This document shows positions 4,266 to 22,786 of a stretch of 22,786 bases of DNA, piece by piece. This DNA comes from a virus (lineage: Duplodnaviria > Heunggongvirae > Uroviricota > Caudoviricetes). Under the pieces are notes generated by a model. It was not told where the DNA came from, did no database searches, and was given only the letters and a program-made list of their open reading frames with translations. The position numbers and the translations under genes are program-made. The stretch lies in the IMG/VR virus record IMGVR_UViG_2547132281_000007, positions 1-22,786 of that record; one strand, written 5' to 3'. The first letter of the stretch is position 1; each line of letters begins with the position of its first letter.

Positions 4266-4741
4266 GACAGCAGCCCTCCCACCGTTTTACTGATATCGCT
4301 TAAGGCAGACGTTGTCGTATCCTGCAAATTATTCAGCTGCGCACTGAGATCACCGAACATATCGGACAGGGATTCATCCACCCGTTTGAGCGACAGGGTG
4401 AACTCAATCCGGCGCGGCATACCATCGCGGAAAAACTCCGTTTTAGTCTGATTCAGTCCCTCAATCACATACATGCCGTAAATCGTGCCGCTGCCTTCAA
4501 TCAGGGGCCATGCTTTCCCCTGTTCTGCCATCTGCTCCAGTGCCAGCAACGACAGCCTGCCGCCTGTTATTTCCGGCATAAGAACACCGGAAAGCGTCAG
4601 CATGTCGTTTTCCGGTCCCAGAAACTGCGTGGACGGACGTCGGTTTACCCGACTGTTTGCCGCATGTCGCCAGCTGCGTTGATACTGCAGTTCCTGATAC
4701 GGAACGGTGCGCAGCATAAACACGTACAATCCCAGCACCAT
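4262..4741 (-). CDS. P2 gpU-like tail protein
   Basis: 159-aa ORF MVLGLYVFMLRTVPYQELQ...; size and sequence recalled as matching P2 gpU, with translational coupling to D. Confidence 0.88.
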   Translation of the reverse strand: MVLGLYVFMLRTVPYQELQYQRSWRHAANSRVNRRPSTQFLGPENDMLTLSGVLMPEITGGRLSLLALEQMAEQGKAWPLIEGSGTIYGMYVIEGLNQTKTEFFRDGMPRRIEFTLSLKRVDESLSDMFGDLSAQLNNLQDTTTSALSDISKTVGGLLS

Positions 4742-4782
4742 CAGCCTGGAAAAGAAATCCGAGTTCTAATCGCTGGAGAAAA

Positions 4783-5043: not shown

Positions 5044-5463
5044 ATGGATAGATACTTCTATTCACAAAAAGAAAATGGTTTTTTTACCGATTTAAATAAA
5101 GCACCTTCAGATGCTGTTGAGATAACCACGGATGAATGGCTGTTACTACTGGATGGTCAGGATAATGGCATGAAAATAGTCAGCAATCAGGAGGGATATC
5201 CGGTTTTGACAGAGCAACCACCTTTATCAAAAGAAAACCTTATTGCATTGGCGGATTTGAAAAAAAGAAAACTTATTAATGAAGCCAACGAGCACATGAA
5301 CAGCAGACAATGGCCAGGTAAAGCGGCTATTGGTCGTCTGAAAAGTGAGGAACTGGCGCAATATAATTTATGGCTGGATTATCTGGACGCACTGGAACTG
5401 GTTGATACCTCCAGTGCGCCAGATATTGAATGGCTTACGCCTCCGGCAGTTCAGGCCAGATGA
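5044..5463 (+). CDS. tail fibre assembly protein (alternative cassette, Tfa/U' type)
   Basis: 139-aa ORF with the C-terminal motif LVDTSSAPDIEWLTPPA typical of Tfa chaperones; sits 3 bp after the orphan fibre tip and converges on and overlaps G. Confidence 0.7.
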   Translation: MDRYFYSQKENGFFTDLNKAPSDAVEITTDEWLLLLDGQDNGMKIVSNQEGYPVLTEQPPLSKENLIALADLKKRKLINEANEHMNSRQWPGKAAIGRLKSEELAQYNLWLDYLDALELVDTSSAPDIEWLTPPAVQAR

Positions 5464-6040
5464 CATCCGGCGCGGTGCTGGTATCTGTTGCAGTCACCGC
5501 GTCAATGTAATCCAGCACGGCGTTAAGTCGGGTTGTTTCTGTCTGCGTCAGTTTACGTGCGGCCTGCAATTTCAGCTGAATCAGACTGATGGAAGCCATT
5601 GCAGCATCAATCAGTGACTGACGCTGTGCTTCTGCCGCGTCTACTGCGGCGCTATGCTGTGCCTCAGTATCGGTCACCCATTTCTCACCATCCCATTTAT
5701 CGTATGGCGTTAATGGGGCGATAGTGGTTGTATTTTCAGGGTAATCACCCGGAACTGTGATTTCTTTGGTATCTCCCGTTTCGGTACTATAGACAACTTC
5801 ACCGCGATGGTCTGGCACATATTCCCATGAGTTTAAATCTGCCGAACGACAGATTGCATAACCAGCTTTATGTGTACCTGGTGCATCCAGACAGGAACAT
5901 GCCGGGATACCGACGCCGACAGCGAGATATTCAGTTGATGTAGAAATATATTCCCGCGTTTCACCATCATAATTATAAACGGTAATATCTCCCGCTTTTA
6001 TGGCAATGAGTTCGCTATTTAATACAGCTTTATTCATCAT
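5435..6040 (-). CDS. tail fibre assembly protein (P2 gpG-like)
   Basis: 201-aa ORF with the Tfa C-terminal motif DTSTAPDVIWPELPEA; immediately downstream of H with a 4-bp overlap. Confidence 0.85.
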   Translation of the reverse strand: MMNKAVLNSELIAIKAGDITVYNYDGETREYISTSTEYLAVGVGIPACSCLDAPGTHKAGYAICRSADLNSWEYVPDHRGEVVYSTETGDTKEITVPGDYPENTTTIAPLTPYDKWDGEKWVTDTEAQHSAAVDAAEAQRQSLIDAAMASISLIQLKLQAARKLTQTETTRLNAVLDYIDAVTATDTSTAPDVIWPELPEA

Positions 6041-7593
6041 GCGGCCCTCACAATATAATTAAAAGCGATGTTACGAGGACGAGTTTCTGTACCTACATTT
6101 TCACTAATTTCACCATAACGTTTAACACTACGAGAGCTAAGAGCTCGTAGTGAGGAAGGCACCTTAAGACCGGGTTCGTCCGTTTTAACTATTCCCCCGT
6201 CACCGTATGTAGCCAGTATTCCTGGGTTTACGCCTTCCCGTGCACTTCCTGCGGCGAGTCCGTCCCCTGTCCATAATTCCATATAGTGTGCATGGTCCAA
6301 AATTGTGTGTGGCTGCCAATTAAGCAAAGCGCGACCAGTATCAATCCCGCGACCGTCATCCCAGCCACGAATAAATTCACCGCGTAAATCAGGCAATTTA
6401 TTGGTCGGGTAAGCCTTTGCCAGTTCCGGGTATTCTTCAGCAGAAAAAGCCGCACCATTGCATTTCAGCCAGCCTGTCGGCGGAGTGGCTGAAGGCCACG
6501 GAACAGGCACCCCAACCGGTAATGCAGAGCCTTCTCCCAAACCAAGGTATGTGAGAAGACCAGCTACATCCTTTCCACTCAAATTGGTAAGCGTATTGTC
6601 CAGCGGTTGTTTACCTGCCAGCGCATTAAGCATTGTCGTGGCAAAGTTCGGATCATTCCCCAGTGCCGCCGCCAGTTCGTTCAGTGTATCCAGTGCCGCA
6701 GGTGCAGAACCCACCATTCCTGCAATCGCCGATTTCACAAATGCCGTGGTGGCAATTTGTGTATTGTTGACCGACTGTGCCGCAGTAGGTGCGGTTGGCG
6801 TTCCGGTGAGTGCCGGACTCGACAGCGGCGCTTTCAGTGCCAGCGCATTGTTAATGGTGGTACTGAATTTCGGATCATTGTTAATGGCTGCGGCTATTTC
6901 TTTCAGCGTGTCCAGCGTGGCTGGCGCACCATTAATAAGAGCCGTCAGAGCCGCCTGAACAAACTCGGTGGTCGCAATCTGCGTGGTGTTATTCCCTGCT
7001 GCTGGCGTTGGCGCTTTGGGTGTCCCGGTAAACGTCGGACTTTCTTTGGGTGCATACTGTGAATGCGGGTCCGGTGCGGCAAGATGTTTTGCCATCTGAT
7101 CATCCGCGTACACCTTCAGCTCCAGTGCCTTGTCATCCACATACTTGCGGGTTGCCAGCACTACAGCAGGGTCGATTTTCAGGGTGATATTGTCCGTGCT
7201 GCTGGTAATCAGCACCATGCGCACGGTCTGAGTGCGCCCGCTACCTTCAGCCAGTTGCGGCTTATAGCTTTCCGGGCAGTTGCCCACGGCAATCAATGCC
7301 CCGGACTCATCAAACAAGCCCACTTCACGTATCCACCAACCGCCCTCGTTTTCAGGGATCACCTGTTCGGCAATAATCTGGCTGCTGTTCTGCGGGTCGA
7401 TATAAAGCATATTCAGCGCAGCCCGGCGTTTCTCATTTACCAGTGCCGTCTGCTTTGCGTCCGGCGTTGGCAATACTCCACCGCCATCGCCCACCGCCAT
7501 ATGGGTAATTTTTAGCGGCACACCGAGCGCGGCGGCGCTGGCAAGTTTCGCCGCGCCAATATCCGTCAGCAGGGTATAAAATTTTGTGCTCAT
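6037..7593 (-). CDS. tail fibre protein (P2 gpH-like)
   Basis: 518-aa ORF with a conserved P2 H-like N-terminus (MSTKFYTLLTDIGAAKLA...), internal tandem repeats (NTTQIATTEFV / NNTQIATTAFV) and a divergent C-terminal receptor-binding region. Confidence 0.9.
   Translation of the reverse strand: MSTKFYTLLTDIGAAKLASAAALGVPLKITHMAVGDGGGVLPTPDAKQTALVNEKRRAALNMLYIDPQNSSQIIAEQVIPENEGGWWIREVGLFDESGALIAVGNCPESYKPQLAEGSGRTQTVRMVLITSSTDNITLKIDPAVVLATRKYVDDKALELKVYADDQMAKHLAAPDPHSQYAPKESPTFTGTPKAPTPAAGNNTTQIATTEFVQAALTALINGAPATLDTLKEIAAAINNDPKFSTTINNALALKAPLSSPALTGTPTAPTAAQSVNNTQIATTAFVKSAIAGMVGSAPAALDTLNELAAALGNDPNFATTMLNALAGKQPLDNTLTNLSGKDVAGLLTYLGLGEGSALPVGVPVPWPSATPPTGWLKCNGAAFSAEEYPELAKAYPTNKLPDLRGEFIRGWDDGRGIDTGRALLNWQPHTILDHAHYMELWTGDGLAAGSAREGVNPGILATYGDGGIVKTDEPGLKVPSSLRALSSRSVKRYGEISENVGTETRPRNIAFNYIVRAA
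6532..6557. other. candidate Hin/Gin/Cin-family invertase crossover site inside the tail fibre gene
   Basis: 26-bp imperfect palindrome TTCTCCCAAACC-AA-GGTATGTGAGAA (12-2-12, AA core), matching recalled hixL TTCTTGAAAACCAAGGTTTTTGATAA at 20 of 26 positions. It encodes ...TYLGLGEG... at the expected constant/variable junction of H. Confidence 0.5.
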
Positions 7594-8195
7594 GGATTCA
7601 CTCTCATTGTGTCAATAACATGGACCGCCCCGCCTTCATGCGCGGTGCCACCGGAAATAATCGTTTCGTTGATATACGGATAGATCGTGATTTCTTCGCC
7701 AAGATAGCTGGCGGCTCCCACCCAATGCGGGCCGCTGGTCTGCAGATTGATGGACATGCCGATCATGTGGCGGCTACATGGTTTGGCATCGCTTATCAGT
7801 CGCTCAAGTTCCAGATAGGTATCTTCAGTGATGCCCTGGTCCTGCACGCCGATATCCAGGCGAAACGTGCCCGGTGTTTCTCCGGTCTGCCACCACTCAA
7901 TAATGCGGATCAGGAATCCGAACGGCTCCACCACCCGCCGCACGGCACTGGTGGTCCCTTTATGCTGATGAATATAAAAAGCATCCTTCACCACCTGGCG
8001 CTTGACGCTTTCTGTCCAGCCCTCGTCCCAGCGATCCACAGAGAACGCCCAGGCGAGATAAGGCAGGAAACTGACCGGACAGGTTGCCGGATTCCACAAG
8101 TCACGAAGCGGCACCTGCAGATCAGAAATCCCGCTGCAGGTTTGCGCCAGTCGGCGCTCCAGTGGTGTTGAACCCGGTGGCAGCAGACTATTCAT
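7590..8195 (-). CDS. baseplate assembly protein (P2 gpI-like)
   Basis: 201-aa ORF with LPYLAWAFSVDRWDEGW and GTFRLDIGV motifs, recalled as matching P2 gpI; 4-bp overlap with H. Confidence 0.88.
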   Translation of the reverse strand: MNSLLPPGSTPLERRLAQTCSGISDLQVPLRDLWNPATCPVSFLPYLAWAFSVDRWDEGWTESVKRQVVKDAFYIHQHKGTTSAVRRVVEPFGFLIRIIEWWQTGETPGTFRLDIGVQDQGITEDTYLELERLISDAKPCSRHMIGMSINLQTSGPHWVGAASYLGEEITIYPYINETIISGGTAHEGGAVHVIDTMRVNP

Positions 8196-9096
8196 CCGTT
8201 CCTCCGTTGGTTACGCTCCACTGCGTACATGATGCCGCCTGTGTTTTGTTCAGGACCACATCCGCCAGAGGAGAAGCCAGCTCCACACGCTGCACCCCCT
8301 CAACATGCAGGGCGGCAAAGATGGCGCTACGGCGAATATCCCGACCAAGACGCGTCTGACTGGCGATGTACTTCTGCAGGCTGGCTTTTGCCGCTGCCAT
8401 TACCGGCTCTGCTTCCGGTCCAGGATAGAGAAAAATGGTGGCTTCCACGCGATACGGGATGATTTCTGCGCTGCGAACCGTAAGACGGTCAGCCACCGGG
8501 CGGACGTTCTCACTGTTCAGAGCTTTTTCCACCACGTCCAGCAGGTCTTTTTCTGCAGTTCCATCGCCTTCGCGGCTAAGGACAGTCAGCACCACCTCTG
8601 CAGGTGCCGGGCTGGTTGCACTGGCATCCGCCACCCGACCGTCGGCGCTTCGGGCATGAAATTCATAAGCTGCAGTTGGCCCCGCAACAGAAAGCCCTTC
8701 AAAGGCTGCAGGCACACGCAGGCGCAACGCTTCATCGCTTTCCATCACAGCTGCAACGGGCGGCACAGCATCATTATCAGCAGGCGTCACCGTCAGGCGT
8801 GTCACGTTGTAGTTGGCAGCGAGCTGGTCAAGATCGCCGCCCATCGCGTAAGCCACCATCACCGCCTGCGCGGCTTCGTTAATGCGCTGGCGCAGAAGCA
8901 ACTCACGGTAAGCGTTCTCCTGCAACAATTTAGTGGCGGGTTCAGATTCCAGTTCCAGCGTGCGGATCACTGCTTCCTGCTCATCTTTCGGATGAAGCGC
9001 CACAAATTCTGCCTTGCGTTCGGCAAGCAGCGTCTCAAAGTCCGGCACATCCACAATCTGCGGTGCAGGCAACTGCGAAAGGTCAATCACTGCCAT
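8188..9096 (-). CDS. baseplate assembly protein (P2 gpJ-like)
   Basis: 302 aa from the ATG at 9096 (MAVIDLSQLPAPQIV...), preceded by a GGAG RBS; aligns in recall with P2 gpJ (MPIIDLNQLPAP...). The longer ORF to 9135 has no support. Confidence 0.88.
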   Translation of the reverse strand: MAVIDLSQLPAPQIVDVPDFETLLAERKAEFVALHPKDEQEAVIRTLELESEPATKLLQENAYRELLLRQRINEAAQAVMVAYAMGGDLDQLAANYNVTRLTVTPADNDAVPPVAAVMESDEALRLRVPAAFEGLSVAGPTAAYEFHARSADGRVADASATSPAPAEVVLTVLSREGDGTAEKDLLDVVEKALNSENVRPVADRLTVRSAEIIPYRVEATIFLYPGPEAEPVMAAAKASLQKYIASQTRLGRDIRRSAIFAALHVEGVQRVELASPLADVVLNKTQAASCTQWSVTNGGTDE

Positions 9097-9442
9097 TCTC
9101 TGCTCCTGTTGATACGGAAAGGGACACAGGCACACCGTTATTCCGCCGCCCGGTCAGCTCCACCACCATAGAACCGTCAAAGTTGCTGTTGATGGTGATG
9201 GAATCCAGCGTCAGCCGTGGCTCCCAGCGACTCAGCGCCACATACACTGCCGACATGACCTGCAGGCGTAATGCCGGATTTTGTGGCTGATCTATTAAAA
9301 CCGACAGGAGGGAACCATATTCCCGGCGGGCAATGCGGCTACCCTGCGGTGTCAGCAGAATGTCCCGCACCGACTGGCGCAGATGATCAATATCAGTAAT
9401 GACTTTGCCGCTGGTATTGTTCATCCCGCTATAAAGCGTCAT
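9083..9442 (-). CDS. baseplate protein (P2 gpW-like)
   Basis: 119-aa ORF MTLYSGMNNTSGKVITDIDHL...GSRIARREYGSLL, recalled as matching P2 gpW; the 3' end overlaps the J start. Confidence 0.88.
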   Translation of the reverse strand: MTLYSGMNNTSGKVITDIDHLRQSVRDILLTPQGSRIARREYGSLLSVLIDQPQNPALRLQVMSAVYVALSRWEPRLTLDSITINSNFDGSMVVELTGRRNNGVPVSLSVSTGAENGSD

Positions 9443-9564
9443 ACCGGGCCTCCGGTTGTATCGCCGCCTTTCAGGACGCCAGTATGCTGATGCGCATCAA
9501 CAACAATCCCGTTAGAGCTCATCGCTCCGCCGCCCTGGGTATCCGTTCTGGTCCGGTGCGCTGT
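9439..9564 (-). pseudogene. remnant 3' end of spike gene V (about 40 codons)
   Basis: Short open frame ending ...GGGAMSSNGIVVDAHQHTGVLKGGDTTGGPV* whose TGA overlaps the W ATG (ATGA), as V/W do in P2. It carries an HxH-type motif and is truncated by an in-frame stop at 9565-9567, with no N-terminal part present. Confidence 0.4.
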
Positions 9565-9593
9565 TCAACCGTGGGCGCAACAAAGCCGATAAG

Positions 9594-10436
9594 GTGGACA
9601 TCGACCTGTCCCACAACAATCTGGCCCCCGGCCTGCTGTGCGCAGACGGGCAATACCGCCAGATAGTCACCGTGGAAGATGCGGTGCGCGGCGGCTGTAA
9701 CCTGTTCGACCTCGACCAGTTGCGCATGGAGTACAGCCCGGACGAATACCAGAACCTGCTGATGTGTGAGTTCGTGGACGATCTCGCGTCCGTGTTCCCG
9801 CTCAGCGAGCTGCAGGCGTGCATGGTGGACAGCTGGGAAGTCTGGACCGACTTTCATGCACTGGCCCTGCGCCCGTTTGGCTGGCGCGAGGTGTGGATCG
9901 GTTATGACCCGGCAAAAGGTACGCAGAACGGCGACAGTGCCGGATGCGTTGTGGTGGCTCCGCCAGCCGTGCCGGGCGGTAAGTTCCGCATTCTTGAGCG
10001 TCACCAGTGGCGCGGGATGGACTTCCGCGCCCAGGCGGACGCCATCAAAAAACTGACCGAACAGTACAACGTGACCTATATCGGCATCGACTCGACCGGC
10101 GTCGGTCACGGGGTTTATGAGAACGTGAAAGCGTTCTTTCCTGCCGTCCGGGAGTTTGTCTACAACCCCAACGTTAAAAACGCGCTGGTACTCAAGGCCT
10201 ACGACATTATCAGCCACCGCCGTCTGGAGTTTGACGCCGGGCACACCGACATTGCGCAGTCATTCATGGCAATCCGTCGCGCAACCACCGCCAGTGGCAA
10301 CCGCCCAACCTATGAAGCCAGCCGCAGCGAAGAAGCCAGCCACGCCGATCTGGCCTGGGCAACAATGCACGCACTGTTTAACGAACCACTGCAGGGCGAG
10401 TCCGCCAATACCAGTAATATTGTGGAGATTTTTTGA
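9594..10436 (+). pseudogene. terminase large subunit (P2 gpP-like), C-terminal fragment only
   Basis: 280-aa ORF with a GTG start; motifs ...VWIGYDPAKG...DSAGCVVVAPP...KFRILERHQWRGMDF...YIGIDSTGVG...SHADLAWATMHA match the nuclease half of P2 terminase. The reading frame opens only at 9516, so the N-terminal ATPase half (about 300 aa) is absent. Confidence 0.75.
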
Positions 10437-11464
10437 TGGGAAAGAGTAAGAAGAACCGCGCTGCGTCGACGAACCAGATCCAGCATAAAAGTCAAACTAC
10501 AGCCGAAGCATTCAGCTTCGGTGATCCCGTTCCTGTTCTGGACCGCCGCGAACTACTGGACTATGTGGAATGCGTACAGACAGATCGCTGGTATGAGCCG
10601 CCAGTAAGCTTTGACGGACTGGCGCGCACCTTCCGCGCCGCCGTGCATCACAGTTCACCAATTGCGGTGAAATGCAACATTCTGACCAGTACCTACATCC
10701 CCCACCCGCTGCTCAGCCAGCAGGCTTTTTCACGTTTTGTGCAGGACTATCTGGTATTTGGTAACGCCTACCTGGAGAAACGCACGAACCGCTTCGGTGA
10801 AGTTATCGCCCTTGAGCCTGCTCTGGCAAAATACACCCGACGCGGGTTAGACCTGGATACCTACTGGTTTGTGCAATACGGTATGACAACCCAGCCGTAT
10901 CAGTTCACGAAAGGCAGCATTTTTCATCTGATGGAACCGGACATTAACCAGGAGATCTACGGCCTGCCCGGTTATCTTTCTGCCATTCCGTCCGCCCTGC
11001 TCAATGAGTCCGCCACGCTGTTCCGACGCAAATATTACATCAACGGCAGCCATGCAGGCTTCATCATGTATATGACCGATGCCGCGCAGAATCAGGAGGA
11101 TGTGAACAATCTCCGCAACGCGATGAAAAGTGCCAAAGGTCCTGGTAACTTCCGCAACCTGTTTATGTACTCGCCTAATGGCAAAAAAGACGGGCTTCAG
11201 ATCATCCCGTTGTCAGAAGTCGCAGCGAAGGATGAATTTCTGAACATCAAGAACGTGAGCCGGGACGATATGATGGCGGCGCATCGTGTACCGCCACAGA
11301 TGATGGGGATTATGCCGAATAATGTTGGGGGATTTGGGGATGTGGAGAAGGCTAGTAAGGTATTTGTACGCAATGAGTTAAATTCACTCCAACAACGAAT
11401 TAGAGAGGTGAATAATTGGCTGAATGATAAAGTAATAAAATTCCAAGCCTATTCGTTATCATGA
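10433..11464 (+). CDS. portal protein (P2 gpQ-like)
   Basis: 343-aa ORF overlapping the P stop; FSFGDPVPVLDRRELLDYVEC and SATLFRRKYYINGSHAGFIMY motifs recalled as matching P2 Q. Confidence 0.9.
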   Translation: MMGKSKKNRAASTNQIQHKSQTTAEAFSFGDPVPVLDRRELLDYVECVQTDRWYEPPVSFDGLARTFRAAVHHSSPIAVKCNILTSTYIPHPLLSQQAFSRFVQDYLVFGNAYLEKRTNRFGEVIALEPALAKYTRRGLDLDTYWFVQYGMTTQPYQFTKGSIFHLMEPDINQEIYGLPGYLSAIPSALLNESATLFRRKYYINGSHAGFIMYMTDAAQNQEDVNNLRNAMKSAKGPGNFRNLFMYSPNGKKDGLQIIPLSEVAAKDEFLNIKNVSRDDMMAAHRVPPQMMGIMPNNVGGFGDVEKASKVFVRNELNSLQQRIREVNNWLNDKVIKFQAYSLS

Positions 11465-11484
11465 AAAACCGACATTTATAATAT

Positions 11485-11511
11485 TAAAGGGTGAAAACAA
11501 CGCACCCTTTA
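11485..11511. terminator. hairpin between convergent portal gene and cargo membrane gene (possible bidirectional terminator)
   Basis: 9-bp stem TAAAGGGTG / CACCCTTTA with a 9-nt loop, flanked by A/T-rich sequence on both sides. Confidence 0.4.
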
Positions 11512-11533
11512 ATATATGCCAATACAAAATTAA

Positions 11534-12718
11534 CTATTCCTTATTCAAATCAACCAACTTGTCCATAAGAGTTTCATTGTTATACCCCTCATGCATTTCA
11601 GTTCGTTTCCCTGAAAATTTTCTTTTATGAAACTCATTTATATCAACATTAAGATGTTCACAAATTTGCTCAAACTCATCTAGATAGAGAGGATCAACAT
11701 AATAATTATCTGAAATCAATTTTTTTTTGCGCATTTCTTCGTAAGTTGATTTCAGAGTGTAACGTACTGGGCATAATGCCTTTATTATTTCATGAATAAA
11801 CTCATCATTGTTGACCCCATAATTTCTTAGCTTTAAAAATAGCTTTTTTCGATCATCGGCAATTTTAAAGCAAGCATCCGCAAACTCTAACTTTTCAACA
11901 CCACCAGCAACATAAAAGTCTAATAAAGCCTTCCTTTGAAGGCTAATATCTTCCTCCGGTTTATAATCGTTAACTTTAACACTTCTAATAGATTTCTCTT
12001 TATTTTTTCTACGAGCTGAAATAATATCACTTGGGATGCTAAGAGACATTGCAAGCAATGCCATAAGAATCAAACAAAGAAAAGCATATACAAACACCCT
12101 TATTATTTGATACCACCATTTACTTGTTGTAAAAACCTCACTCCAAAAAGATTCAGTCTGAGAGTCGCCACTCATTTTGAGAATATCAAACCCTTTTACA
12201 CCAGCGACTTTACCAACCAACGATATAACTGGACTCGAATTCTCACTCCCCAAAACAAAAAAGCTCACCCGAAATTTTTCGTCAGGCTCTATGATTACCG
12301 GATTGAAAACCAAAGAATCATTACTAATCCTTGGCTTTATATTGTCCTTTAGATACACACTGTCTGTAATAATTGTAGGTTTCTCTACAACTTCACCTCC
12401 AGAAACTCTTAACGTTAGTAATGATGAATCATCAAAGTCACCTTTCCTTATAACAGCATTACCAGTATTTTTAATTGTTACATTTATTAGCCATAAGTTT
12501 TTTTTGGCTGTTCTGAGTTCTTCCCCATTATATGAAATAGATAATCCTCCGACAGCTTGATGAATATCAAGAACTTTTGTCGGCTGCATTAGTTCAATCG
12601 AAATATTCCCTTGTTTTTCATAATAGAAGCCAACATAAATCGCCACAACAAAACTAACTAAAGCTACTACAGCCATGAATCCAGCAGACTTTACAAATCC
12701 CCATATCGAACTGAGCAT
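11534..12718 (-). CDS. hypothetical 2-TM membrane protein (prophage cargo; candidate superinfection-exclusion or abortive-infection factor)
   Basis: 394-aa ORF in AT-rich DNA. N-terminal TM helix (FMAVVALVSFVVAIYVGFYY), a beta-rich central domain, a second TM (WWYQIIRVFVYAFLCLILMALLAMSL) followed by a positively charged stretch (RRKNKEKSIR), then a helical C-terminal domain. No family recognised. Confidence 0.6.
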   Translation of the reverse strand: MLSSIWGFVKSAGFMAVVALVSFVVAIYVGFYYEKQGNISIELMQPTKVLDIHQAVGGLSISYNGEELRTAKKNLWLINVTIKNTGNAVIRKGDFDDSSLLTLRVSGGEVVEKPTIITDSVYLKDNIKPRISNDSLVFNPVIIEPDEKFRVSFFVLGSENSSPVISLVGKVAGVKGFDILKMSGDSQTESFWSEVFTTSKWWYQIIRVFVYAFLCLILMALLAMSLSIPSDIISARRKNKEKSIRSVKVNDYKPEEDISLQRKALLDFYVAGGVEKLEFADACFKIADDRKKLFLKLRNYGVNNDEFIHEIIKALCPVRYTLKSTYEEMRKKKLISDNYYVDPLYLDEFEQICEHLNVDINEFHKRKFSGKRTEMHEGYNNETLMDKLVDLNKE

Positions 12719-12781
12719 TTTTCGAACTACCCCTTATCTTATCTCATGAGTTGTTTTAGGATATTACACTATTTGCGCGCG

Positions 12782-12800
12782 CTCGTATCCCCGCCACGCC
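12782..12800 (-). other. candidate cos site (cohesive-end sequence of P2/186 type)
   Basis: Minus strand reads GGCGTGGCGGGGATACGAG followed by CGCGCGC. Recalled P2 cos is GGCGAGGCGGGGAAAGCAC and 186 cos GGCGTGGCGGGGAAAGCAT, about 14-15 of 19 matches. The block is GC-rich between two AT-rich genes. Confidence 0.5.
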
Positions 12801-12845
12801 TGCCCGCTTTGTGTAGTGGTTTTCATGCAGGTGCCTGATCCACGC

Positions 12846-12869
12846 AAAAGCCCGCCAGTTCTGGCGGGC
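12846..12869 (-). terminator. putative Rho-independent terminator downstream of the DUF2971-like gene
   Basis: + strand AAAA then gcccgcc-agttct-ggcgggc; on the minus strand this is a GC stem-loop followed by UUUU. Confidence 0.45.
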
Positions 12870-12935
12870 CTTAGCAAAAACGATCCTCAAACGGTCATGC
12901 AAATTCAGGCAGCATAGGCATGCACTGTTGTTAGG

Positions 12936-14054
12936 TTAGTTCGTAATGCCAATTTCCTTCAAAACTTTAGCCATTTCCGTCTGACTTAACTTGTTCCTGA
13001 ACAAAGTGAAATTTTTCATTTTTTCCGCTCGTTGCCCTTTTGAAATAGTAATCTTTCCTGATGCTGATAACTCAGAGTCAAAAAAATAACATATTGTTGA
13101 ATTTGAATTCTCCATATTTGACTTGATACAATTCCATATGCTTTCTTTTTTCATTTCACACATTCTAGGACCAAAAATGATCCCTTTAACAACATTAGCA
13201 TCATGATGAAAAATATGTCCAATATTTCGATTTACGCGTCTTTGAACATGCCGCTCACTCCCTATTCCTGCATTTGCCTCCGGAATAAACATTCGATATT
13301 CAGCTTCATATCTCCAAAATCTATTTTTAGTTAAAAATAACTCTGCAACATTTGCGCTTGGGTCTAGAAGTGAAACCTCTTTAGCCTGATTACTATATTT
13401 TATTGGCTTAACTGGAAAATTAAATTTATCTGATGAAAATAAATTTTCTCTTAGCTTCATTCCAGTATAGGGTATACCATCAATATTAAAATCCTGCGTT
13501 TCATAAATCACAACACAACCACTAAAGCCAGCAGCATAATGCGCCCACATCATACGATCTAACGCATTAGCTGAAAATGACACACTGAATACTGCAGGAA
13601 CTATTTTCCTATACAACCTTTCTTTGATACTGTTCTCGCAAAGTGAAACCAAATATTGGCGTGGTTCAGGAATATTTCCATAAATAGCAGAATTAATCAC
13701 ATTGATAGGAAGTAAACCATCATCTATGATCTTACGTATCTCATCAACGTGTGAGTCAAACAGGCTATCTAATGACTCAATGCTACTTTTTATTTTTTTT
13801 CCTCTAAAAATACGATTCAATCCCTTATGTATTTTCAAATTACTCAAATCCAATATGTGACTCAAATTTTTATAGGATTTATCGCAAGGAGAACGCAATA
13901 AAATATCCCATAATTTCAATTTATTATCGAAGCGATAATCTATATTGAGATCATTGGGATCATTCAATTGCGCAGGAGCGGAAAAATATAATTCATTATA
14001 ACGAATAGCTTTCTCGAAGAAGAAGTCCGGACGGTAATACTTGAAAAGATACAT
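12936..14054 (-). CDS. DUF2971-like hypothetical protein (prophage cargo at the P2 old/tin position; candidate anti-phage effector)
   Basis: 372-aa ORF in AT-rich DNA with an AGGT RBS. N-terminus MYLFKYYRPD...FSAPAQLNDPND and internal MMWAHYAAGFSGCVVIYE resemble my recollection of the DUF2971 signature (LYKY..., FNDPxE, MWshYa). Positioned between the replication/tum module and cos. Confidence 0.65.
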   Translation of the reverse strand: MYLFKYYRPDFFFEKAIRYNELYFSAPAQLNDPNDLNIDYRFDNKLKLWDILLRSPCDKSYKNLSHILDLSNLKIHKGLNRIFRGKKIKSSIESLDSLFDSHVDEIRKIIDDGLLPINVINSAIYGNIPEPRQYLVSLCENSIKERLYRKIVPAVFSVSFSANALDRMMWAHYAAGFSGCVVIYETQDFNIDGIPYTGMKLRENLFSSDKFNFPVKPIKYSNQAKEVSLLDPSANVAELFLTKNRFWRYEAEYRMFIPEANAGIGSERHVQRRVNRNIGHIFHHDANVVKGIIFGPRMCEMKKESIWNCIKSNMENSNSTICYFFDSELSASGKITISKGQRAEKMKNFTLFRNKLSQTEMAKVLKEIGITN

Positions 14055-14438
14055 GACATTACCTATAACATTGCAATATTAATAACCGTATGAAAACAGT
14101 TTGATTGTATTGATAATATCCTATTCTGCATATACCACAGTGTAAAGATTAATTTTAAATACCATATCCAACAGTAAATCATGTATCGACCGCCAGATAA
14201 GAAGCTTTTGAAAAACTTGGACGATAATTAATCAAAAGCTCTTCCCATCCTGTATCCTCTATCTCACTCTTTTGGACATTGAAAGAAGCCCCTCTGATCG
14301 GGAATGATTGTTTCCAGCGTTTGACCACGATATACAATATGATATTTGATGTCTTTTGATCAGATGGCTAACGCCTCGCATAGCTCGTTGTTCAACCTTG
14401 CTGACGCCAGAAGCAAGTTCAGACGCCAGCAACGTTTC

Positions 14439-14672
14439 TTAATGCAGCCAGCTGTCGTCTTCCCACACCTTCTGCATAATTTTCATCACTTGTTTCCTTT
14501 CTTCGTCCAGTTGCAGTCCGGTCAGTTCCACACCGTTAGAGCTACCTTTACGGATACGAATTACCGTTTTGGGATACAGGGGGCGCAGATTGCGGTAAAG
14601 CTCTGATTCAAGGGCGTCTAGGGTAGACTGGCTAATCTTCTGCTCTTTATCGATCATTATTTCAATGCGCAT
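14439..14672 (-). CDS. DinI-family protein
   Basis: 77 aa from the ATG at 14672, with a GAGGGG RBS 6 nt upstream. MRIEIMIDK...LDALESEL...VWEDDSWLH aligns in recall with E. coli DinI (MRIEVTIAK...AIDALAGEL...ETWESADDWF). The annotated ORF extension to 14744 has no support. Confidence 0.75.
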   Translation of the reverse strand: MRIEIMIDKEQKISQSTLDALESELYRNLRPLYPKTVIRIRKGSSNGVELTGLQLDEERKQVMKIMQKVWEDDSWLH

Positions 14673-14682
14673 AAAAGTCCCC

Positions 14683-14871
14683 TCAGCTGATGACATCCAT
14701 TGAGCGGTTGTATTCGTGGCTTCTGATTTTTGCCATGAGTTCATCTGTCAGTTCAGAAACCCACTGCAGGGCCAGCCCCTTCTCTTCATCACTACACTCA
14801 CTAGCCGCTACAAGCTTAAGAAAAAAATCAATGCGTTGGAGCTTCAAAGACTCCAAAAAATAGTCCTGCAT
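14683..14871 (-). CDS. small hypothetical protein in the SOS-controlled tum-like operon (possible antirepressor N-terminal module)
   Basis: 62 aa from the ATG at 14871, preceded by a perfect AGGAGG RBS with 4-nt spacing and lying directly downstream of the LexA box. The ORF extension to 14973 lacks an RBS. The gene sits where phage 186 carries tum. Confidence 0.5.
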   Translation of the reverse strand: MQDYFLESLKLQRIDFFLKLVAASECSDEEKGLALQWVSELTDELMAKIRSHEYNRSMDVIS

Positions 14872-14912
14872 CTTTCCTCCTATGACACCACAAGCAATAC
14901 TGTATACATAAC

Positions 14913-14932
14913 CACTGTTTATATTTACAGTA
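14913..14932 (-). promoter_or_regulatory. LexA box (SOS operator) upstream of the tum/DinI-like operon
   Basis: Minus strand TACTGTAAATATAAACAGTG is CTG-N10-CAG, matching consensus TACTGTATATATATACAGTA at 17 of 20 positions. It lies about 40 bp upstream of the AGGAGG RBS and is flanked by promoter-like hexamers (TTTACA ... TATACT). Confidence 0.6.
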
Positions 14933-15024
14933 TATAATAATCTTACTGATGTAAAACGTTTTTTTACGTTCATCAGCCTGATATGCCTGGTATTATTAAG
15001 AGCACGAATTGTTAATCCGCGTAA

Positions 15025-17439
15025 TTAATACAGGTTCCGCCACTTATCATCTTCCTGCAAACGCTGGTTCCGATAGAAAATACGCAGGCCTGCTCCTGAC
15101 GGAATGCTGCCGCCGCGAAGGAGTAAATCGACCTCTTTCTCGCTGCCATCAAATCTTCTGGACTTCAGTTCATAGACGAGCTGCTGTCGTTGATGGTCTG
15201 TAATTCGCTGTTTGTAGTCTCTACGCCGTTTCGGTTTCACCAGGCGTAACCTTGCAGCCAGTTCCCGGCGTTCTTTTTTGTTCATACTGTGCAGGTAATC
15301 GTGCAACTCCTTGTCATCCATACGGGTGATATCCGTTCTGGTATCCCCATCAGCTGATTTGTCTTTCCCTTGTTGGTACAAATTTTCAGCAAGGGGACAG
15401 TTATTGCCACGAGTCCAAGGGGCGCAAGCGCCCTGGTCGGCTGCCGCCTCCTGAACGTCAACGGCCTTACGAACCATTTTCCACTTCACTGCATGAGTGC
15501 AGATCTTGCCCTCTGCAATGGGTGACCAGATGCCATAAATACGAATACCGTGATCGCCATAGGCGGTCGGCTCTTCGTTAATTTCATAAGCAGTTCTGAT
15601 GAGGTGATATTTACGGGGAACCAGTACACCTCCCTGCTTCATGATATAGGTGGCAAAACAACCAGCATCAGCAGCAGCCAGAATGGCATCAAGGCGCGGG
15701 TTATCCAGTACCGGCACACCTGCTTTTTTGTCACCCTGCTGCCTTGCCGCCTGACCAGCCAGCAATCGCAGTTCACGGTAAGCCTGACGCCCCGGAATAC
15801 CAAAGAAGCGGAATTGCTGAACACGATGCAAAGACGCCCAGGCATTCACGTATTCAGCGTTATCACGAAGAGATTTACCCGTTTCCTTGCTGATCTCGCC
15901 AGCCAGACCACGCCCGTCAATGTTCTTACTGATGTATTTCGCTATGTAGCTTGTCGGCGTTCCTTTGCGCGGGTTAATCAGCTCAGACTTAAAGCGCGGC
16001 CCCGTGTTATTGCCCAGCTCCTCGCGGTCTTCACGGATAGCAAACTTACGCAACAATGCAGTAATGGCGCGGCGGTCTTTTTTGCGCATGAAACACAACA
16101 GGTGCCAGTGAACTGTGCCGTCGTGATGCGGCTCAGCCACCCGCACGCCATACCAGCGCAACCCGGCTTTGTGCATCGCCTTACGAAATGCAGCAAACAT
16201 ACCGACCAGATAATCGCTGCTTTGTCTTACCGTCGCGTTTTTCCAGGTCGGGTTGGGTCTGCCGTTATTTAGCGTGGAATGGAAACGTGACGGACAGGTA
16301 ATGGTGTAGAAAACGGCGCAGTCACCGCGCATTTCCGCGATAAGCTCCAGACCTTTAACACAGGCCATCATCTCATTGCGGCGATGCGCCGGGTTGCTGC
16401 AGCTGGCGTTTACCACATCTTCCATATCCAGCGCGTCTCCGTCTTCGTTCACCAGTTCATGAGAACGGAAAAACTCCAGCGACTTACGGCGCTGCTCACG
16501 TTTATGCATCACAGCTTCATAGCTGACATAGGGAGATGCTTTTTTGCTGACCAGGCAGACAGCACGCAACTGCTCTTCCCGCCATTCGCAACGCATCTTC
16601 CACAATTTCCGATACCACCAGTCGGCGCACAGCATACGCGCCAGCGAGCCCGGAATGAGTTCATAGGGCACTGGTTTACGGCGGTTTCTTTTCCGACGGA
16701 GTTGCTCAAACGCAGGCGGGATGACATCCAAACGTAGGGTTTCCGCTGCCACCCTTTCCCATGTCTTGCGGATTTCTTCTGGCTTAACATCATCGGTGGC
16801 GTACAAATCACCACAAGCGGCATCAAGACACATGCTCATATGCGCAGCGACAAGGGTAGACAGGCGTTTCACCTGATCCTGACTCATTTCAGGCAGGATC
16901 AGCAGGCCGTCCAGCCCTTCATGGCTTGCCATAAAGCGAAAAGAAGTGGATAGCTGACTGTCGCGTACATGCTCCAGTCGTTCCAGACATGGCTTAATCG
17001 TCTCACGCAGATAGCGAGAATAAGCCTTTGGCCTGCCCAGGCTGCTGAAATATTCGATACGTTGCATCAGCGGCTTGCTGATGTGGGAAGGCTGGGCGCT
17101 GACGTCCGCCAGAATGACCATGTCCGGGTTAAAACGCTGCTGTTCATGCGCCAGCTTTGCCCGACTAATGAGCTTATCCTGCTCCATTTCACGCTGGACA
17201 GGATCACGGGATTCATTAAAGAAATAACGCTCCCAGACCTGCTCACTCAGTGCATCGCGGCGCAGCTGTTCCTGCTCATTATCGGCAGCGTACAGAGTGA
17301 TCAGGTTTGAAAGTGCAGACTCCAGCGCAACTTCCGCCGGGTCCAGATACGGGTTAATGGCCTTTTTCGGGCCGTTCCATGAAAATGCTACAGCGGCCTC
17401 GTTAAAGCCGCTAGAGTTGCTCATATCGTCATGACTCAT
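15025..17439 (-). CDS. replication initiation endonuclease (P2 gpA-like, rolling-circle)
   Basis: 804-aa ORF of the size and family expected for P2 gpA (recalled as about 760 aa), directly downstream of dam with an ATGA overlap. Confidence 0.88.
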
Positions 17440-18293
17440 ACACGCACCTCGTACACAGCAGAACTATCCACGCCACACGAAGGATCAAATCCCACCCAGC
17501 AGCGCGCCCCGGAAACAGCAATGATTTCTGTTGCAGATTTACTCTCGCCAGCCGACACGCCGATGCTGCGTTTTGCCTTGATGTAGTGGTGAGTGAAATT
17601 TCGATACAGCGAACGGATCAGGGATGTGTCACTGTTAGAAACAATGACTGGATGACCTTCTGATGATCGATATTCAAGAACAGATGCCAGGTGATACTGG
17701 TCATCTTCAGTGAAACCATCAGTGTGATAGCCGGAAAACGTACCGTCATAAGGCGGATCGCAATACACCACATCCCCCACCTGCAGCATCGCCAGCGTTT
17801 CATCAAAGCTGGCGCAGATAAACGTTGCTCGCTGGGCTTTCTCTGCAAATGCGCGAATTTCTTTTTCAGGGAAATACGGATTTTTATAATTACCGTATGG
17901 AATGTTGAAATGCCCGCTCTTGTTATAACGACATAACCCACGGTAACCATGACGATTGAGATACAGAAAATATACCGCTTTCATGAAATCAGTAATTTCA
18001 GTGGAGTAATTAAACTCCTGCCTTATGTTGTAATAAGCCACCTCTCTGTTTGCTTCCTCAAATAAAGCTCTGGCACGAGATATAAACGCCTCACAATCAG
18101 CAGCAACCTTTTTATAGAGGTTGATTAAATCAGGATTAATATCCGCAACAAGATAGCTGGGGTAATCCGTCTCCATCATCACTGCACAGGAACCCGCGAA
18201 AGGTTCAACCAGTCGCGGACCAGCAGGAAGATGTTTTTTCAGTTCGGACATAATGGCGGTTTTATTTCCCGCCCATTTCAGGATGGTGCTCAT
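17436..18293 (-). CDS. DNA adenine methyltransferase (Dam-like)
   Basis: 285 aa from [11 protein letters not shown]; carries the DPPY catalytic motif (VYCDPPYDG) and FAGSCAV SAM-binding region. The upstream extension to 18353 is unlikely because it overlaps the TraR-like gene. Confidence 0.85.
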
Positions 18294-18517
18294 ACAGCAC
18301 CTCCGTTGTAATGTTTGCCTTTCAGCTCTGCGATTTCCTGACAGGTAATGCAAAGTTGCACACCCGGAATGGCACGGCGGCGTGCTGGCGGAATTGGCGC
18401 TTCACACTCAATGCAAAGCACGCGGGACACGCCCGGCGTTTTGGCACGGGCAGCACGGATATGGCGCTGGCGTTCTTCTTCAACGCGCTGCTGTACGAGA
18501 TCCATTGCATCAGCCAT
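18290..18517 (-). CDS. TraR/DksA-family C4 zinc-finger protein
   Basis: 75-aa ORF with CIECEAPIP...CITCQ (CxxC...CxxC), typical of small TraR-like proteins of P2-like phages and conjugative plasmids. Confidence 0.7.
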   Translation of the reverse strand: MADAMDLVQQRVEEERQRHIRAARAKTPGVSRVLCIECEAPIPPARRRAIPGVQLCITCQEIAELKGKHYNGGAV

Positions 18518-18756
18518 TAGTGGATCTCCTGCGCTTCGTTCTGGATTGCTTCAGCAGTTACACGCAATAGTTCTGCTGCTTCGACGTGGTTTAGCTGGCG
18601 GGATGTGATATGACACGCCAGGCTATCAAGGCGAGCTGCCATTGCTTCAGCCCTTGCCCGGCGTTCTTCCAGACGAGTCTCTGTCAGTAAAATATTAAGC
18701 CCAGCATCATCCGGTCCGGTTTTAGTCGTGAGGGTTTCAATATTACGCATAATCAA
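18517..18756 (-). CDS. hypothetical phage early protein
   Basis: 79-aa ORF in operon context, its start overlapping the upstream gene arrangement; no recognisable motif. Confidence 0.45.
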   Translation of the reverse strand: MIMRNIETLTTKTGPDDAGLNILLTETRLEERRARAEAMAARLDSLACHITSRQLNHVEAAELLRVTAEAIQNEAQEIH

Positions 18757-18817
18757 TTCTCCTGAATTTAGATAAAGGGATACCCGGCGGGTTTACGCCA
18801 TTAATTTCATTAGTTGG

Positions 18818-19159
18818 TTAATTCGGCATGGTTAGCCGTCTGGGAAATAAGCTCACCACTGCACGAAAATGATTCATTGCTTTAATCAACTCCCGCTTTT
18901 CGTCAGTGGTCAGCTCATTAATGCTGATGCTATGACGTTCAGCTGGAATTTTTGCCATAAAGAATATAGCAGCCAGTGCCCGTTTATTTTGTTCGTTATT
19001 GATATCCCGTGGATCACGCATATCTTTAATAAACCGCTCAAGCTCTGACTCAATATTCAGGCCAAATACTTTCGCCCTTAACTCCGCAATGTGATTAAGT
19101 CCATTCAGGCGTTCACCGGGGCTTAATGGAACAGTCGCCGCAGCGCTTTCAATAGCCAT
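18818..19159 (-). CDS. hypothetical phage early protein
   Basis: 113-aa ORF on the early-operon strand with a GGGGA-type RBS; no recognisable motif. Confidence 0.4.
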   Translation of the reverse strand: MAIESAAATVPLSPGERLNGLNHIAELRAKVFGLNIESELERFIKDMRDPRDINNEQNKRALAAIFFMAKIPAERHSISINELTTDEKRELIKAMNHFRAVVSLFPRRLTMPN

Positions 19160-21545: not shown

Positions 21546-21733
21546 CTTTTGCTTTTATATCTGCGTCTAAAATAAAAATGAGCCGCAGGTTAACCGCAAA
21601 AGTTACATGCTCACATAGCAAAAAGAATAGCCAACTTCATTATGGCTTCAGTGAGATGTATGGTCGTAGGATTTCATACATTGACACTGGTTATACATAC
21701 AGTAAAAATGCTCTCTACTGGAGGGCATTTTTT

Positions 21734-22786
21734 ATGGCAGTACGAAAACTCACCACAGGGAAATGGCTTTGCGAATGTTACCCCGCCGGACGAAGTGGGC
21801 GTCGTGTGCGTAAACAATTCGCCACCAAAGGCGAAGCTCTGGCTTTTGAGCGTCACACTATGGAAGAAACCGAATCAAAGCCATGGCTGGGCGAATCAGT
21901 GGATCGTCGAACCCTGAAAGACGTGGTTGAGCTATGGTTCAAACTACATGGTAAATCTCTGACTGCTGGGCAGCATGTCTATGACAAATTGCTGCTGATG
22001 GTTGACGCTCTGGGCAATCCTCTTGCAACCGATCTCACCTCTAAAATGTTTGCCCACTATCGAGATAAACGCCTAACAGGCGAGATCTACTTCAGCGAGA
22101 AATGGAAGAAAGGAGCAAGCCCGGTCACCATTAACCTGGAGCAAAGCTATCTAAGTAGTGTTTTTAGCGAACTATCCCGTCTGGGCGAATGGTCGTATCC
22201 GAACCCACTGGAGAACATGCGAAAATTCACCATCGCAGAAAAAGAGATGGCATGGCTTACCCATGAGCAGATTGTTGAATTACTGGCTGATTGCAAACGT
22301 CAGGACCCAATTCTAGCACTGGTAGTTAAGATATGCTTAAGCACAGGCGCACGCTGGCGAGAAGCCGTAAATCTTACTCGTTCACAGGTGACCAAATACC
22401 GAATTACCTTTGTAAGAACGAAGGGGAAGAAAAACAGAAGCATCCCTATCAGTAAAGAGCTTTACGAAGAGATCATGGCGCTTGATGGGTTCAATTTCTT
22501 CACAGACTGCTATTTTCAATTTTTATCCGTGATGGAAAAAACGTCTATCGTGCTCCCTCGCGGCCAACTCACACACGTTCTGCGCCATACGTTTGCGGCG
22601 CACTTCATGATGTCGGGTGGAAACATTCTGGCCTTACAAAAAATTCTCGGACACCACGATATAAAAATGACTATGCGTTACGCACATCTGGCACCGGATC
22701 ATCTGGAAACAGCGCTCCGTTTCAATCCTCTGGCAACGCTGCCAAGTGGCGACAAAGTGGCGGCAGCGGTTGGCATTACCCCGTAA
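21734..22786 (+). CDS. int: tyrosine integrase (P2/186 Int family)
   Basis: 350 aa from MAVRKLTTGKW (recalled P2 Int starts MAIKKLDDGRY), with catalytic residues in context: ARWREA (Arg), HVLRHTFA (His-x-x-Arg) and MRYAHL (Tyr). The stop codon is the last three bases of the window. The annotated upstream extension to 21578 is unlikely. Confidence 0.9.
   Translation: MAVRKLTTGKWLCECYPAGRSGRRVRKQFATKGEALAFERHTMEETESKPWLGESVDRRTLKDVVELWFKLHGKSLTAGQHVYDKLLLMVDALGNPLATDLTSKMFAHYRDKRLTGEIYFSEKWKKGASPVTINLEQSYLSSVFSELSRLGEWSYPNPLENMRKFTIAEKEMAWLTHEQIVELLADCKRQDPILALVVKICLSTGARWREAVNLTRSQVTKYRITFVRTKGKKNRSIPISKELYEEIMALDGFNFFTDCYFQFLSVMEKTSIVLPRGQLTHVLRHTFAAHFMMSGGNILALQKILGHHDIKMTMRYAHLAPDHLETALRFNPLATLPSGDKVAAAVGITP

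Follow-up and report, generated by a model that had tools for sequence, protein, structure and literature searches.

A deletion scar in a cryptic 186/P2-like prophage ends at a recurrent, nucleotide-precise break site in the terminase gene P

Defective prophages of the P2/186 family (Peduoviridae remnants of E. coli and Salmonella) share the gene order ogr-D-U...H-I-J-W-V / P-Q-cos-cargo-A...CI-int. They are chromosomal, have lost morphogenetic and lysis genes through internal deletions, and have kept a defence-gene hotspot close to cos (PMC9122126, PMC13586616). A 2026 survey of defective P2 elements reported no obvious pattern, and the papers on these elements that were searched describe no preferred breakpoints. 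The stretch of DNA considered here, IMG/VR record IMGVR_UViG_2547132281_000007 (22,786 nucleotides; hereafter the window), likewise carries a defective prophage of this family, in which the 3' end of the spike gene V directly abuts the second half of P, the large terminase gene. In contrast to what those papers describe, the terminase breakpoint of this element is nucleotide-precise and recurrent: about thirty deletions across E. coli and Salmonella fall on two positions of this one gene, and their partner sites recur as well. A search of the literature found no description of a terminase hot spot, and the recurrent terminase-side and V-side break sites appear not to have been described previously.

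Two further systems resemble the present one in the geometry of their deletions. In work on M13 and pC194 by Michel and Ehrlich in 1986, illegitimate recombination reportedly had one fixed end, at the nick of the replication origin. The likeness lies in a single exact endpoint that is common to many events while the other varies, in little or no homology between the two, and in a polarity that would fit rolling-circle leading-strand synthesis; the differences are that the fixed end here is not the origin nick (which lies ~5.9 kb away, in gene A), that the first terminase site is unlike a nick site, and that the partners recur. Deletion by microhomology or template switching is similar in its overlaps of 1-3 nt (occasionally 6-11), its imperfect flanking homology and its lack of inserted DNA. 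What sets the present case apart from ordinary slippage is that ~19 events fall on one phosphodiester and that longer homology was ignored in one of them (locus L025, discussed below).

The reference for mapping the deletion is the intact 38.1-kb prophage at the same chromosomal site of E. coli LD22-1 (L002); the blocks retained in the window are 97-99% identical in DNA to intact prophages. Window positions 6335-9541 correspond to L002 13938-17144 and positions 9540-19159 to L002 24509-34128, so that 7,364 bp are missing. The lost interval, L002 17145-24508, holds the 5' part of V, then S, R, lysC, lysB, lysA, K, Y, X, L, M, N and O, and finally the 5' part of P, which bears out the list of lost genes that an initial annotation of this DNA had drawn up from the sequence alone. 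In a three-way alignment, identity to V ends at 9541 and identity to P begins at 9540, and no insertion separates them. The junction (9540..9541; L002 17144 joined to 24509) thus consists of a TA common to both parents, and the gap of 30-150 bp that had been read between V and the nuclease half of P on the other strand is in fact 0 bp. With a shared TA, no foreign DNA, and flanks collinear with the reference on the same strand, the junction has the features of a microhomology-type deletion. It marks an internal deletion of 7,364 bp from a 186/P2-like prophage beside ybjL, the two ends of which were joined through TA, and as a deletion scar in a cryptic prophage it is ordinary in kind.

Both remnants at the scar can be assigned residue by residue. 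The V remnant (9439..9541, minus strand) is translated as TQGGGAMSSNGIVVDAHQHTGVLKGGDTTGGPV followed by a stop codon, and is identical to the last 33 residues of the intact 192-aa V; its derivation from V is thereby secured, at 33 codons as opposed to the ~40 first estimated. The whole of the Pfam 'GpV Apex' motif (residues 170-192 of intact V) lies inside it, and the HxH motif noticed earlier is the HQH within that apex motif. The remnant's one start codon is an internal Met, which would give a 27-aa peptide. At its other end, TCAT at 9439-9442 of the plus strand is ATGA on the minus strand, the overlap of the V stop with the W start that the initial annotation had recognized. The P remnant (9540..10436, plus strand) comprises codons 291-588 of the large terminase gene and begins YPFWSG. 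By Pfam it retains the last third of the ATPase fold and, as had been proposed, the complete RNaseH-like nuclease (Terminase_6C); the DNA-binding Terminase_5 domain and Terminase_6N profile positions 1-142, with the Walker A/B motifs, are gone. The P frame is closed by an in-frame stop upstream at 9513, and the longest open reading frame (ORF) starts with GTG, the earliest start codon available to this frame, and runs from 9594 to 10436 (280 aa).

Only exact look-up of this truncated P ORF, through its 280-aa P' product, located the same junction in other assemblies. GCA_000166615.2 and GCA_002458215.1 hold it in contigs that match the window at 100% identity along 20.4 and 15.3 kb, respectively, the Logan assembly of SRR11281047 holds it with one mismatch, and the loci in question (L003, L007 and L009) differ in source. 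The V/P junction is thus present in three independent assemblies and is not an assembly artefact, as the initial annotation had allowed that it might be. None of 5,426 complete E. coli genomes has the V/P junction, and a 33-mer and a 24-mer spanning it had no match in GTDB representative genomes, IMG/VR or JGI metagenomes.

The same 280-aa ORF is present in loci whose left neighbour is other than V, and it is the comparison of these loci that reveals the recurrence. Cases were gathered from IMG/VR, complete genomes and exact ORF look-ups (the 280-aa form, a second 280-aa variant, and 250-, 224- and 204-aa forms), and alignment of the upstream 140 nt of the loci with the 280-aa ORF showed that they part from intact P at the same nucleotide. 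About 19 different left ends join P within nt 868-873 (CT/T/A/TCCG), each 1-3 nt or less from the window's own breakpoint. This position, hot site 1, is represented in the window by TATCCGTTCTGGTCCGG (9540..9556, plus strand), which begins at the recurrent breakpoint, P nt 871. In L002 coordinates, the left ends joined to it are D4973, D4998, D5068, T7163, T7428, T7519, T7529, T7631, FII9927, FII10051, H14729, I15285, V17144, lysB18831, lysA19309, X20264 and N22634, together with one that is unmapped; L042 is the partner listed by locus and not by coordinate. Overlaps are mostly 1-3 nt and the deleted lengths range from 1.9 to 19.4 kb. The affected prophages carry differing cargo genes and occupy three chromosomal loci (ybjL, ssrA/smpB and one other) in E. 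coli and Salmonella, the latter contributing at least one of the junction types (L029).

It is important to emphasize that this clustering is not produced by the search method, because any endpoint within ~nt 804-925 (~120 nt) would yield the same 280-aa ORF, yet only two deletions in that interval end elsewhere (nt 896 and 918). The interval contains five TA dinucleotides, one of which takes 17 of the 19 events. The P-side end (nt 871-873, codon 290/291) is a recurrent, nucleotide-precise break site. The random endpoints of a microhomology deletion are thus not what is seen, with 17-19 junction types at nt 868-873 and 10 at nt 1073-1080, and the one-off loss implicit in the initial annotation gives way to a picture in which the P-side and V-side breakpoints both recur among many deletions.

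A second hot site lies 207 nt downstream of the first and is intact in the window (9744..9756, plus strand; P nt 1077/1078, GAATA/CCAGAAC). Look-ups with the 224- and 204-aa forms place ten different left partners here, at P nt 1073-1080 (GACGAATA / CCAGAACC), and minor clusters are found at nt 984-990 and 1122-1126. The left ends recur in their turn. V17144, the window's own left end, is also joined to hot site 2, in a locus (L153) whose flanks diverge from those of the window by 1.3% (left) and 5.5% (right). Left end E9375/6 pairs with P nt 896, 974 and 1144 (flanks 90-97% identical), D4992-4998 with nt 873, 1080 and 1126, and D4973 with nt 871 in both E. coli and Salmonella, where the left flanks are only 76% identical. 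Pairs with a common left end differ by 1.3-24% in their flanks, which speaks for their independence, while some of the deletions that share an end may be successive erosions.

The hot positions in P have been used from both directions. A homology search for N-terminal fragments of P recovered a P(1-291)::Q fusion (P0111) that breaks at nt 873, and further left ends of rightward or internal deletions at nt 897 (P0114), 987 (P0107), 990 (P0144) and 921 (L171). Positions in P at which leftward deletions end are thus left ends of other deletions as well, which makes them sites of breakage, as opposed to the boundary of a protected block. Within IMG/VR, a search of low power in this respect, no rightward deletions or insertions at the hot site were seen.

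The sequences at the junctions are consistent in several respects. They read P's TATCC every time and TAAC-CG never; imperfect extra homology (TA-ACCG, TA-ACG, AATCCGG) is always on the P-retained, left-deleted side; and all plus-strand TACC/TATCC occurrences in the surveyed range of P (nt 767, 871, 985 and 1078) are breakpoints. At L025, the left flank carries CAGTGCT, the same heptanucleotide that P has just left of the site, and the junction nevertheless uses no P base left of (T)ATCCG. That this homology was ignored means that the P DNA to the left could not be used, and hence that a physical DNA end existed at hot site 1. On the plus strand, the left ends that recur have the sequence ...GGTA or ...GGTCAG, so that both partners give 3' ends of the form ...GG(A)TA and the junctions approach GGTA(T)CC; one of them, ACGGATATCCGT, forms a perfect palindrome of 12 nt. 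The sequence GTTCTGG(T) is present at both hot sites in opposite orientations, site 2 having the reverse complement CCAGAAC, and a third copy, TATCCGTTCTGGTAT, is present in gene A.

Two observations concern hot site 1 as a stretch of DNA. The 12-mer TATCCGTTCTGG at 9540-9551 has a second exact copy on the same strand, at 15330..15341 (plus strand) in gene A, ~75 nt from the place to which the P2 ori nick maps by homology; the chance expectation of this direct repeat is ~0.005, a post hoc figure, and its significance is uncertain. Also, E. coli prophages vary far less in the 198 nt to the right of the site than in the 198 nt on its left (L002 24311-24708), with six complete E. coli genomes at 90-95% identity for the right side versus 398 for the left, which may mark a mosaic or recombination boundary.

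A mechanism that would accommodate these features begins with a specific DNA end, formed repeatedly at TA(T)CC in P such that the retained minus strand would end in ...GG(A)TA-3' (the model's 3' ends being ...CCAGAACGGATA and ...GTTCTGGTA). This minus-strand 3' end would anneal by 1-3 nt, usually TA, to a distant plus strand further into the late region, often beside an imperfect extra match such as TAACCG or TAACG, and its extension leftward would leave the intervening DNA out of the product. The leading strand of a rolling circle would proceed leftward from the minus-strand ori nick in gene A, crossing cos, Q and P and encountering site 2 before site 1. A replication-linked scenario is preferred because the polarity of the inferred 3' end is that of leading-strand synthesis; breakage or template switching would occur when induction aborts or when the prophage replicates in situ, the end might stem from a pause, a nick or a nuclease, and survivors devoid of terminase, capsid or lysis functions would then be selected. 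For this reading as a whole, namely a deletion scar, recurrent break sites, and end formation at TA(T)CC with replication-linked joining through 1-3 nt, we estimate a probability of roughly 0.6.

A number of points weigh against it. The proposed link to replication is drawn from polarity only, and the breaking agent is not accounted for by an insertion sequence (IS), a recombinase site, cos, ori or Chi. Local alignment of site 1 with ori scored no higher than shuffles. Terminase cutting at a pseudo-cos was rejected: the likeness of CAGTGCTT-TCC to P2 cos is no better than that of 24% of shuffles, the window's own cos is dissimilar, and the predicted nick falls 5-7 nt off. A role for RecBCD was likewise rejected, the sole Chi (GCTGGTGG) in the prophage being at L002 26870, far from the site. 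No Rfam family and no strong hairpin (z = -0.4 and +0.3) were found at the hot site. Conservation of its DNA is unexceptional, with no dip in diversity; the 17-nt run from nt 871 is nearly invariant in 75 unique P alleles but ranks eighth among the invariant runs of P, seven being longer. In three sets of loci (L005/L004; L014/L026/L167; the window/L153) one end is common and the other has moved, as in sequential erosion, although even then every step would require the DNA to break at one and the same nucleotide. The survey was anchored on exact P' ORFs (280, 250, 224 and 204 aa) and covers P nt ~800-1150 alone; it favoured leftward deletions that keep P', and a directional bias is therefore not established. 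Finally, deletions at the site are rare (~2%) in complete E. coli genomes, 1,180 of 1,204 being intact across it, and its left half is found in about as many of them as its right half (1185 and 1183 genomes).

The alternative that survives best, and which we consider possible though rather unlikely, is that a sequence-specific enzyme cuts GGTA/TACC-like sites and that the deletions are repair products of two cuts. A nickase, a transposase acting on pseudo-ends, an HUH protein, or a host, satellite or defence nuclease could be the agent. Recurrence to the nucleotide at both partners is in keeping with such cutting, as are the retained 3' ends (...GGTA, ...GGATA or ...GGTCAG, one partner having them on the strand opposite to that of the other), the palindromic junction, the inverted GTTCTGG copies at sites 1 and 2, the use of sites in both directions, and the presence of GG before TA in ~27% of left sites as against ~6% expected. 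The motif is short, however, and not obligatory, with many left sites lacking GG, and no candidate enzyme was found. Neither the nick motif of P2 A (..CGG^AGTCCTGTCAATAAC) nor its equivalent in the window is like site 1; the cargo and defence genes beside Q vary between loci, so that a linked defence nuclease is unlikely; and no IS is present at any junction, the IS26 of locus L159 being unrelated.

Several particular agents were tried and rejected. IS-mediated adjacent deletion was set aside on the same absence of an IS and on the direct abutment of V or other late-gene DNA to P DNA. Site-specific recombination by Int, an invertase or Xer does not suit the diverse left partners, and the att core ATGGGTTTTTTGTT is unrelated; TTATCC has some likeness to gix/hix consensus half-sites, but the break would be at its outer edge, not its centre, which is the wrong geometry. 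For cleavage by gpA (an HUH protein) at a pseudo-ori, the nick pattern GCGCCTCGG^AGTCCTGTCAATAAC was not found near site 1 (the P2 ori nick is annotated at 29892). A pseudo-ori relationship through the TATCCGTTCTGG copy in gene A was also rejected: the nick is ~75 nt away on the other strand, P2 is without the A copy, and L006 has a hot-site deletion without it. No junctions at the A copy were seen in IMG/VR and metagenomes, a search of low power, and the repeat is kept as an unexplained coincidence. Self-targeting by clustered regularly interspaced short palindromic repeats was dismissed by reasoning alone, the direction of type I-E Cas3 being wrong and a type I-F target being one that would be retained.

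A related and equally tentative proposal is that these are terminase fragile sites (TA(T)CC by GTTCTGG/CCAGAAC), at which a dedicated cutting or stalling activity converts inducible prophages to non-lytic remnants. Such an activity might be tied to phage replication, or it might belong to a nuclease, of the host or of a satellite, directed at the terminase of the helper. If so, the remnants would keep cos, portal, replication, immunity and defence cargo, and the outcome would be a programmed-looking domestication of prophages or a source of helper-dependent mini-elements.

Decidedly less probable is illegitimate recombination in which a type II topoisomerase (gyrase or topo IV) joins two of its strong cleavage sites, perhaps under the influence of quinolones, exposure to which also induces 186-type prophages through SOS. 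Classical E. coli studies by Ikeda and co-workers established that gyrase can generate deletions between two cleavage sites without homology, through protein-protected ends. The present deletions resemble gyrase-mediated recombination (as at the lambda bio/gal hot spots) in having hot spots at both partners, used here in both directions, unresected ends and no need for homology, and the prophage has a DinI/Tum-like gene. They differ in that no sign of a 4-nt heteroduplex is found in the junctions. A 4-nt stagger, TAAC on the left versus TATC in P, should leave either version, whereas every junction has P's TATCC, and the hot sites would seem not to fit the T^G preference of gyrase.

One-off illegitimate recombination, a random microhomology deletion during prophage decay with neither breakpoint special, we regard as very improbable, although the scar viewed singly would suit it. 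The microhomology is 2 nt, no IS or repeat is present at the junction, the V/P combination is confined to a few closely related strains and absent from the 5,426 complete genomes, and multiple deletions per prophage are common at related loci. Against this stand the ~19 left partners at one P position and ten at a second, with 17 of 19 events at one of five TA dinucleotides, as well as the recurrence of the V left end with another right end in a diverged background. A look-up artefact or a single contaminating sequence is countered by junction types that differ in flanks and sources.

Convergence by selection is slightly less probable still. It holds that only the exact P' boundary persists, for instance because an internal promoter or a nuclease-only protein is kept or a toxic partial ATPase is removed, and it accords with the retention of P', Q, cos and the adjacent defence-gene hotspot in all variants; defective P2 elements with conserved defence genes have been reported (PMC13586616). 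Selection offers no route to a precision of 1-3 nt, however, since a remnant longer by 5-50 bases would do as well; upstream stops close the P frame, for which the variants share no start; boundaries elsewhere (nt 896-1144) persist too; and the left ends recur. Least probable of all is an assembly artefact or rearrangement, with the 7.4 kb elsewhere in the genome or a chimeric contig: evidence on the missing segment comes from the window only and relocation is not directly addressed by it, but the junction recurs in two NCBI assemblies of different projects, in the Logan assembly, which derives from a separate run, and at further similar loci; an overlap of 2 nt is not one on which assemblers join; and analogous junctions lie in complete chromosomes (L171, L172).

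If the nucleotide-precise recurrence holds, decay in P2-like prophages would be partly channelled by a specific DNA-breaking event and not be random, and there would be a testable route to P2-like domestication in which the defence-gene hotspot is kept. It would also explain the truncated 'terminase family protein' ORFs of fixed length (280 aa, 224 aa and others) that are common in databases, and the breakpoint would serve as a marker for tracing such deletion events.

The layout of the window was established from its ORF list, Pfam, and BLAST against annotated genomes. The chromosomal side, grxA-ybjM-ybjL, is followed by the prophage, whose left part has ogr, D, U, the tail-fibre genes, I, J and W on the minus strand. 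In the middle, on the plus strand, are truncated P, Q, a cargo gene, cos (~12782-12800) and a DUF2971 cargo gene. A 186-type early region on the minus strand encodes a DinI-like protein, the 804-aa A, a Dam-like methylase, a TraR-like protein, Fil and CII, and the far end of the element carries a CI-type repressor and the integrase on the plus strand. The late genes are collinear with those of P2/186-like phages (Peduoviridae), with homologous W, J, I, H, Q, P, D, U, ogr and A, and the window has Pfam matches to GPW_gp25, Phage_portal, Terminase_6N/6C, Phage_CI_repr and Phage_integrase. The scar is thus a P2-family deletion junction, as the initial annotation held, but the closest relative is a 186-like phage and not P2, judging by the CI/CII/Fil/DinI-Tum-type early region and the 804-aa A, and the window's A is 31% identical to that of P2. 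Intact genes on the two sides of the scar are W (GPW/gp25, a baseplate gene; 9083..9442, minus strand), whose own ATG overlaps the V stop codon, and the portal gene Q (10433..11464, plus strand). The probable cos cohesive-end sequence, GGCGTGGCGGGGATACGAG (12782..12800, minus strand), is retained.

Collinear BLAST blocks show three losses of DNA relative to L002, at 4741-4743, 9540/9541 and 22743-22745. The first (4741..4743; L002 6243 joined to 12341, with 3 nt common to both sides) removed 6,097 bp containing T, E, E+E', FII, FI, the invertase gene and the start of a gp53-like gene, so that the sheath, tube, E/E', tape measure and invertase were already gone by way of this deletion. With the two internal deletions of 6,097 bp and 7,364 bp, the complete morphogenetic, lysis and packaging gene set of a functional phage is no longer present: the gene content of the window includes no holin, endolysin, spanin, scaffold, capsid, small terminase or terminase ATPase. 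The earlier conclusion that the element can neither lyse the cell nor form capsids is therefore sound as an inference from gene content. To say that it keeps its baseplate was an overstatement, since the V hub/spike is destroyed and the 4741-4743 deletion took the sheath, tube and tape measure; because of these losses, with E/E' and the invertase, no tail can be made by the element.

At 4741-4743, U has 159 aa versus 161, with an ATG created or retained at 4741, and is joined to the middle of the gp53-like tail-fibre cassette; L003 shows the same junction. The tail-fibre cassette at 5284-6557 aligns in inverted orientation to the P2-like element L001 and corresponds to an invertible segment, which the deletion of the invertase gene has frozen in one orientation. 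At the third junction, ~22743-22745, ~350 bp are absent relative to LD22-1, comprising the 3' end of int and a small downstream gene. The end of int is fused to downstream sequence, giving an integrase ORF (21578-22786) of 402 aa versus 343, and this exact 402-aa product is on record for E. coli W26 only (EID66180.1).

Other loci of the survey display related arrangements around P. A mini-derivative of the form ogr-D'/P'-Q-cos-...-int, with an identical junction, is found at ybjL in E. coli (L023) and at another locus in L028 and L029, the latter from Salmonella; the left flanks of L023 and L028/L029 are only 76% identical. It keeps cos and the replication and integration genes, and so might be mobilisable by a helper phage. 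An apparent insertion at the hot site in three IMG/VR loci (L114, L139 and L146) was rejected as such, since the ~0.7-0.8-kb insertion sits between P and Q instead; it contains a 47-nt stretch similar to internal P. In L159 (OZ040824.1), an IS26 element (IS6 family) has entered P as a simple insertion at nt ~1067, so that hot site 2 is 10 nt downstream of it.

The cargo genes of the window (11534-12718 and 12936-14054) flank cos, in a known P2 defence hotspot. The first encodes a protein of 394 aa with no Pfam match and a membrane-like N-terminal segment, and the second a protein of 372 aa with a weak DUF2971 match. Related loci hold other cargo at this position, namely HIRAN, SIR2, GmrSD, TIR, RT, DarT/macro or AIPR.

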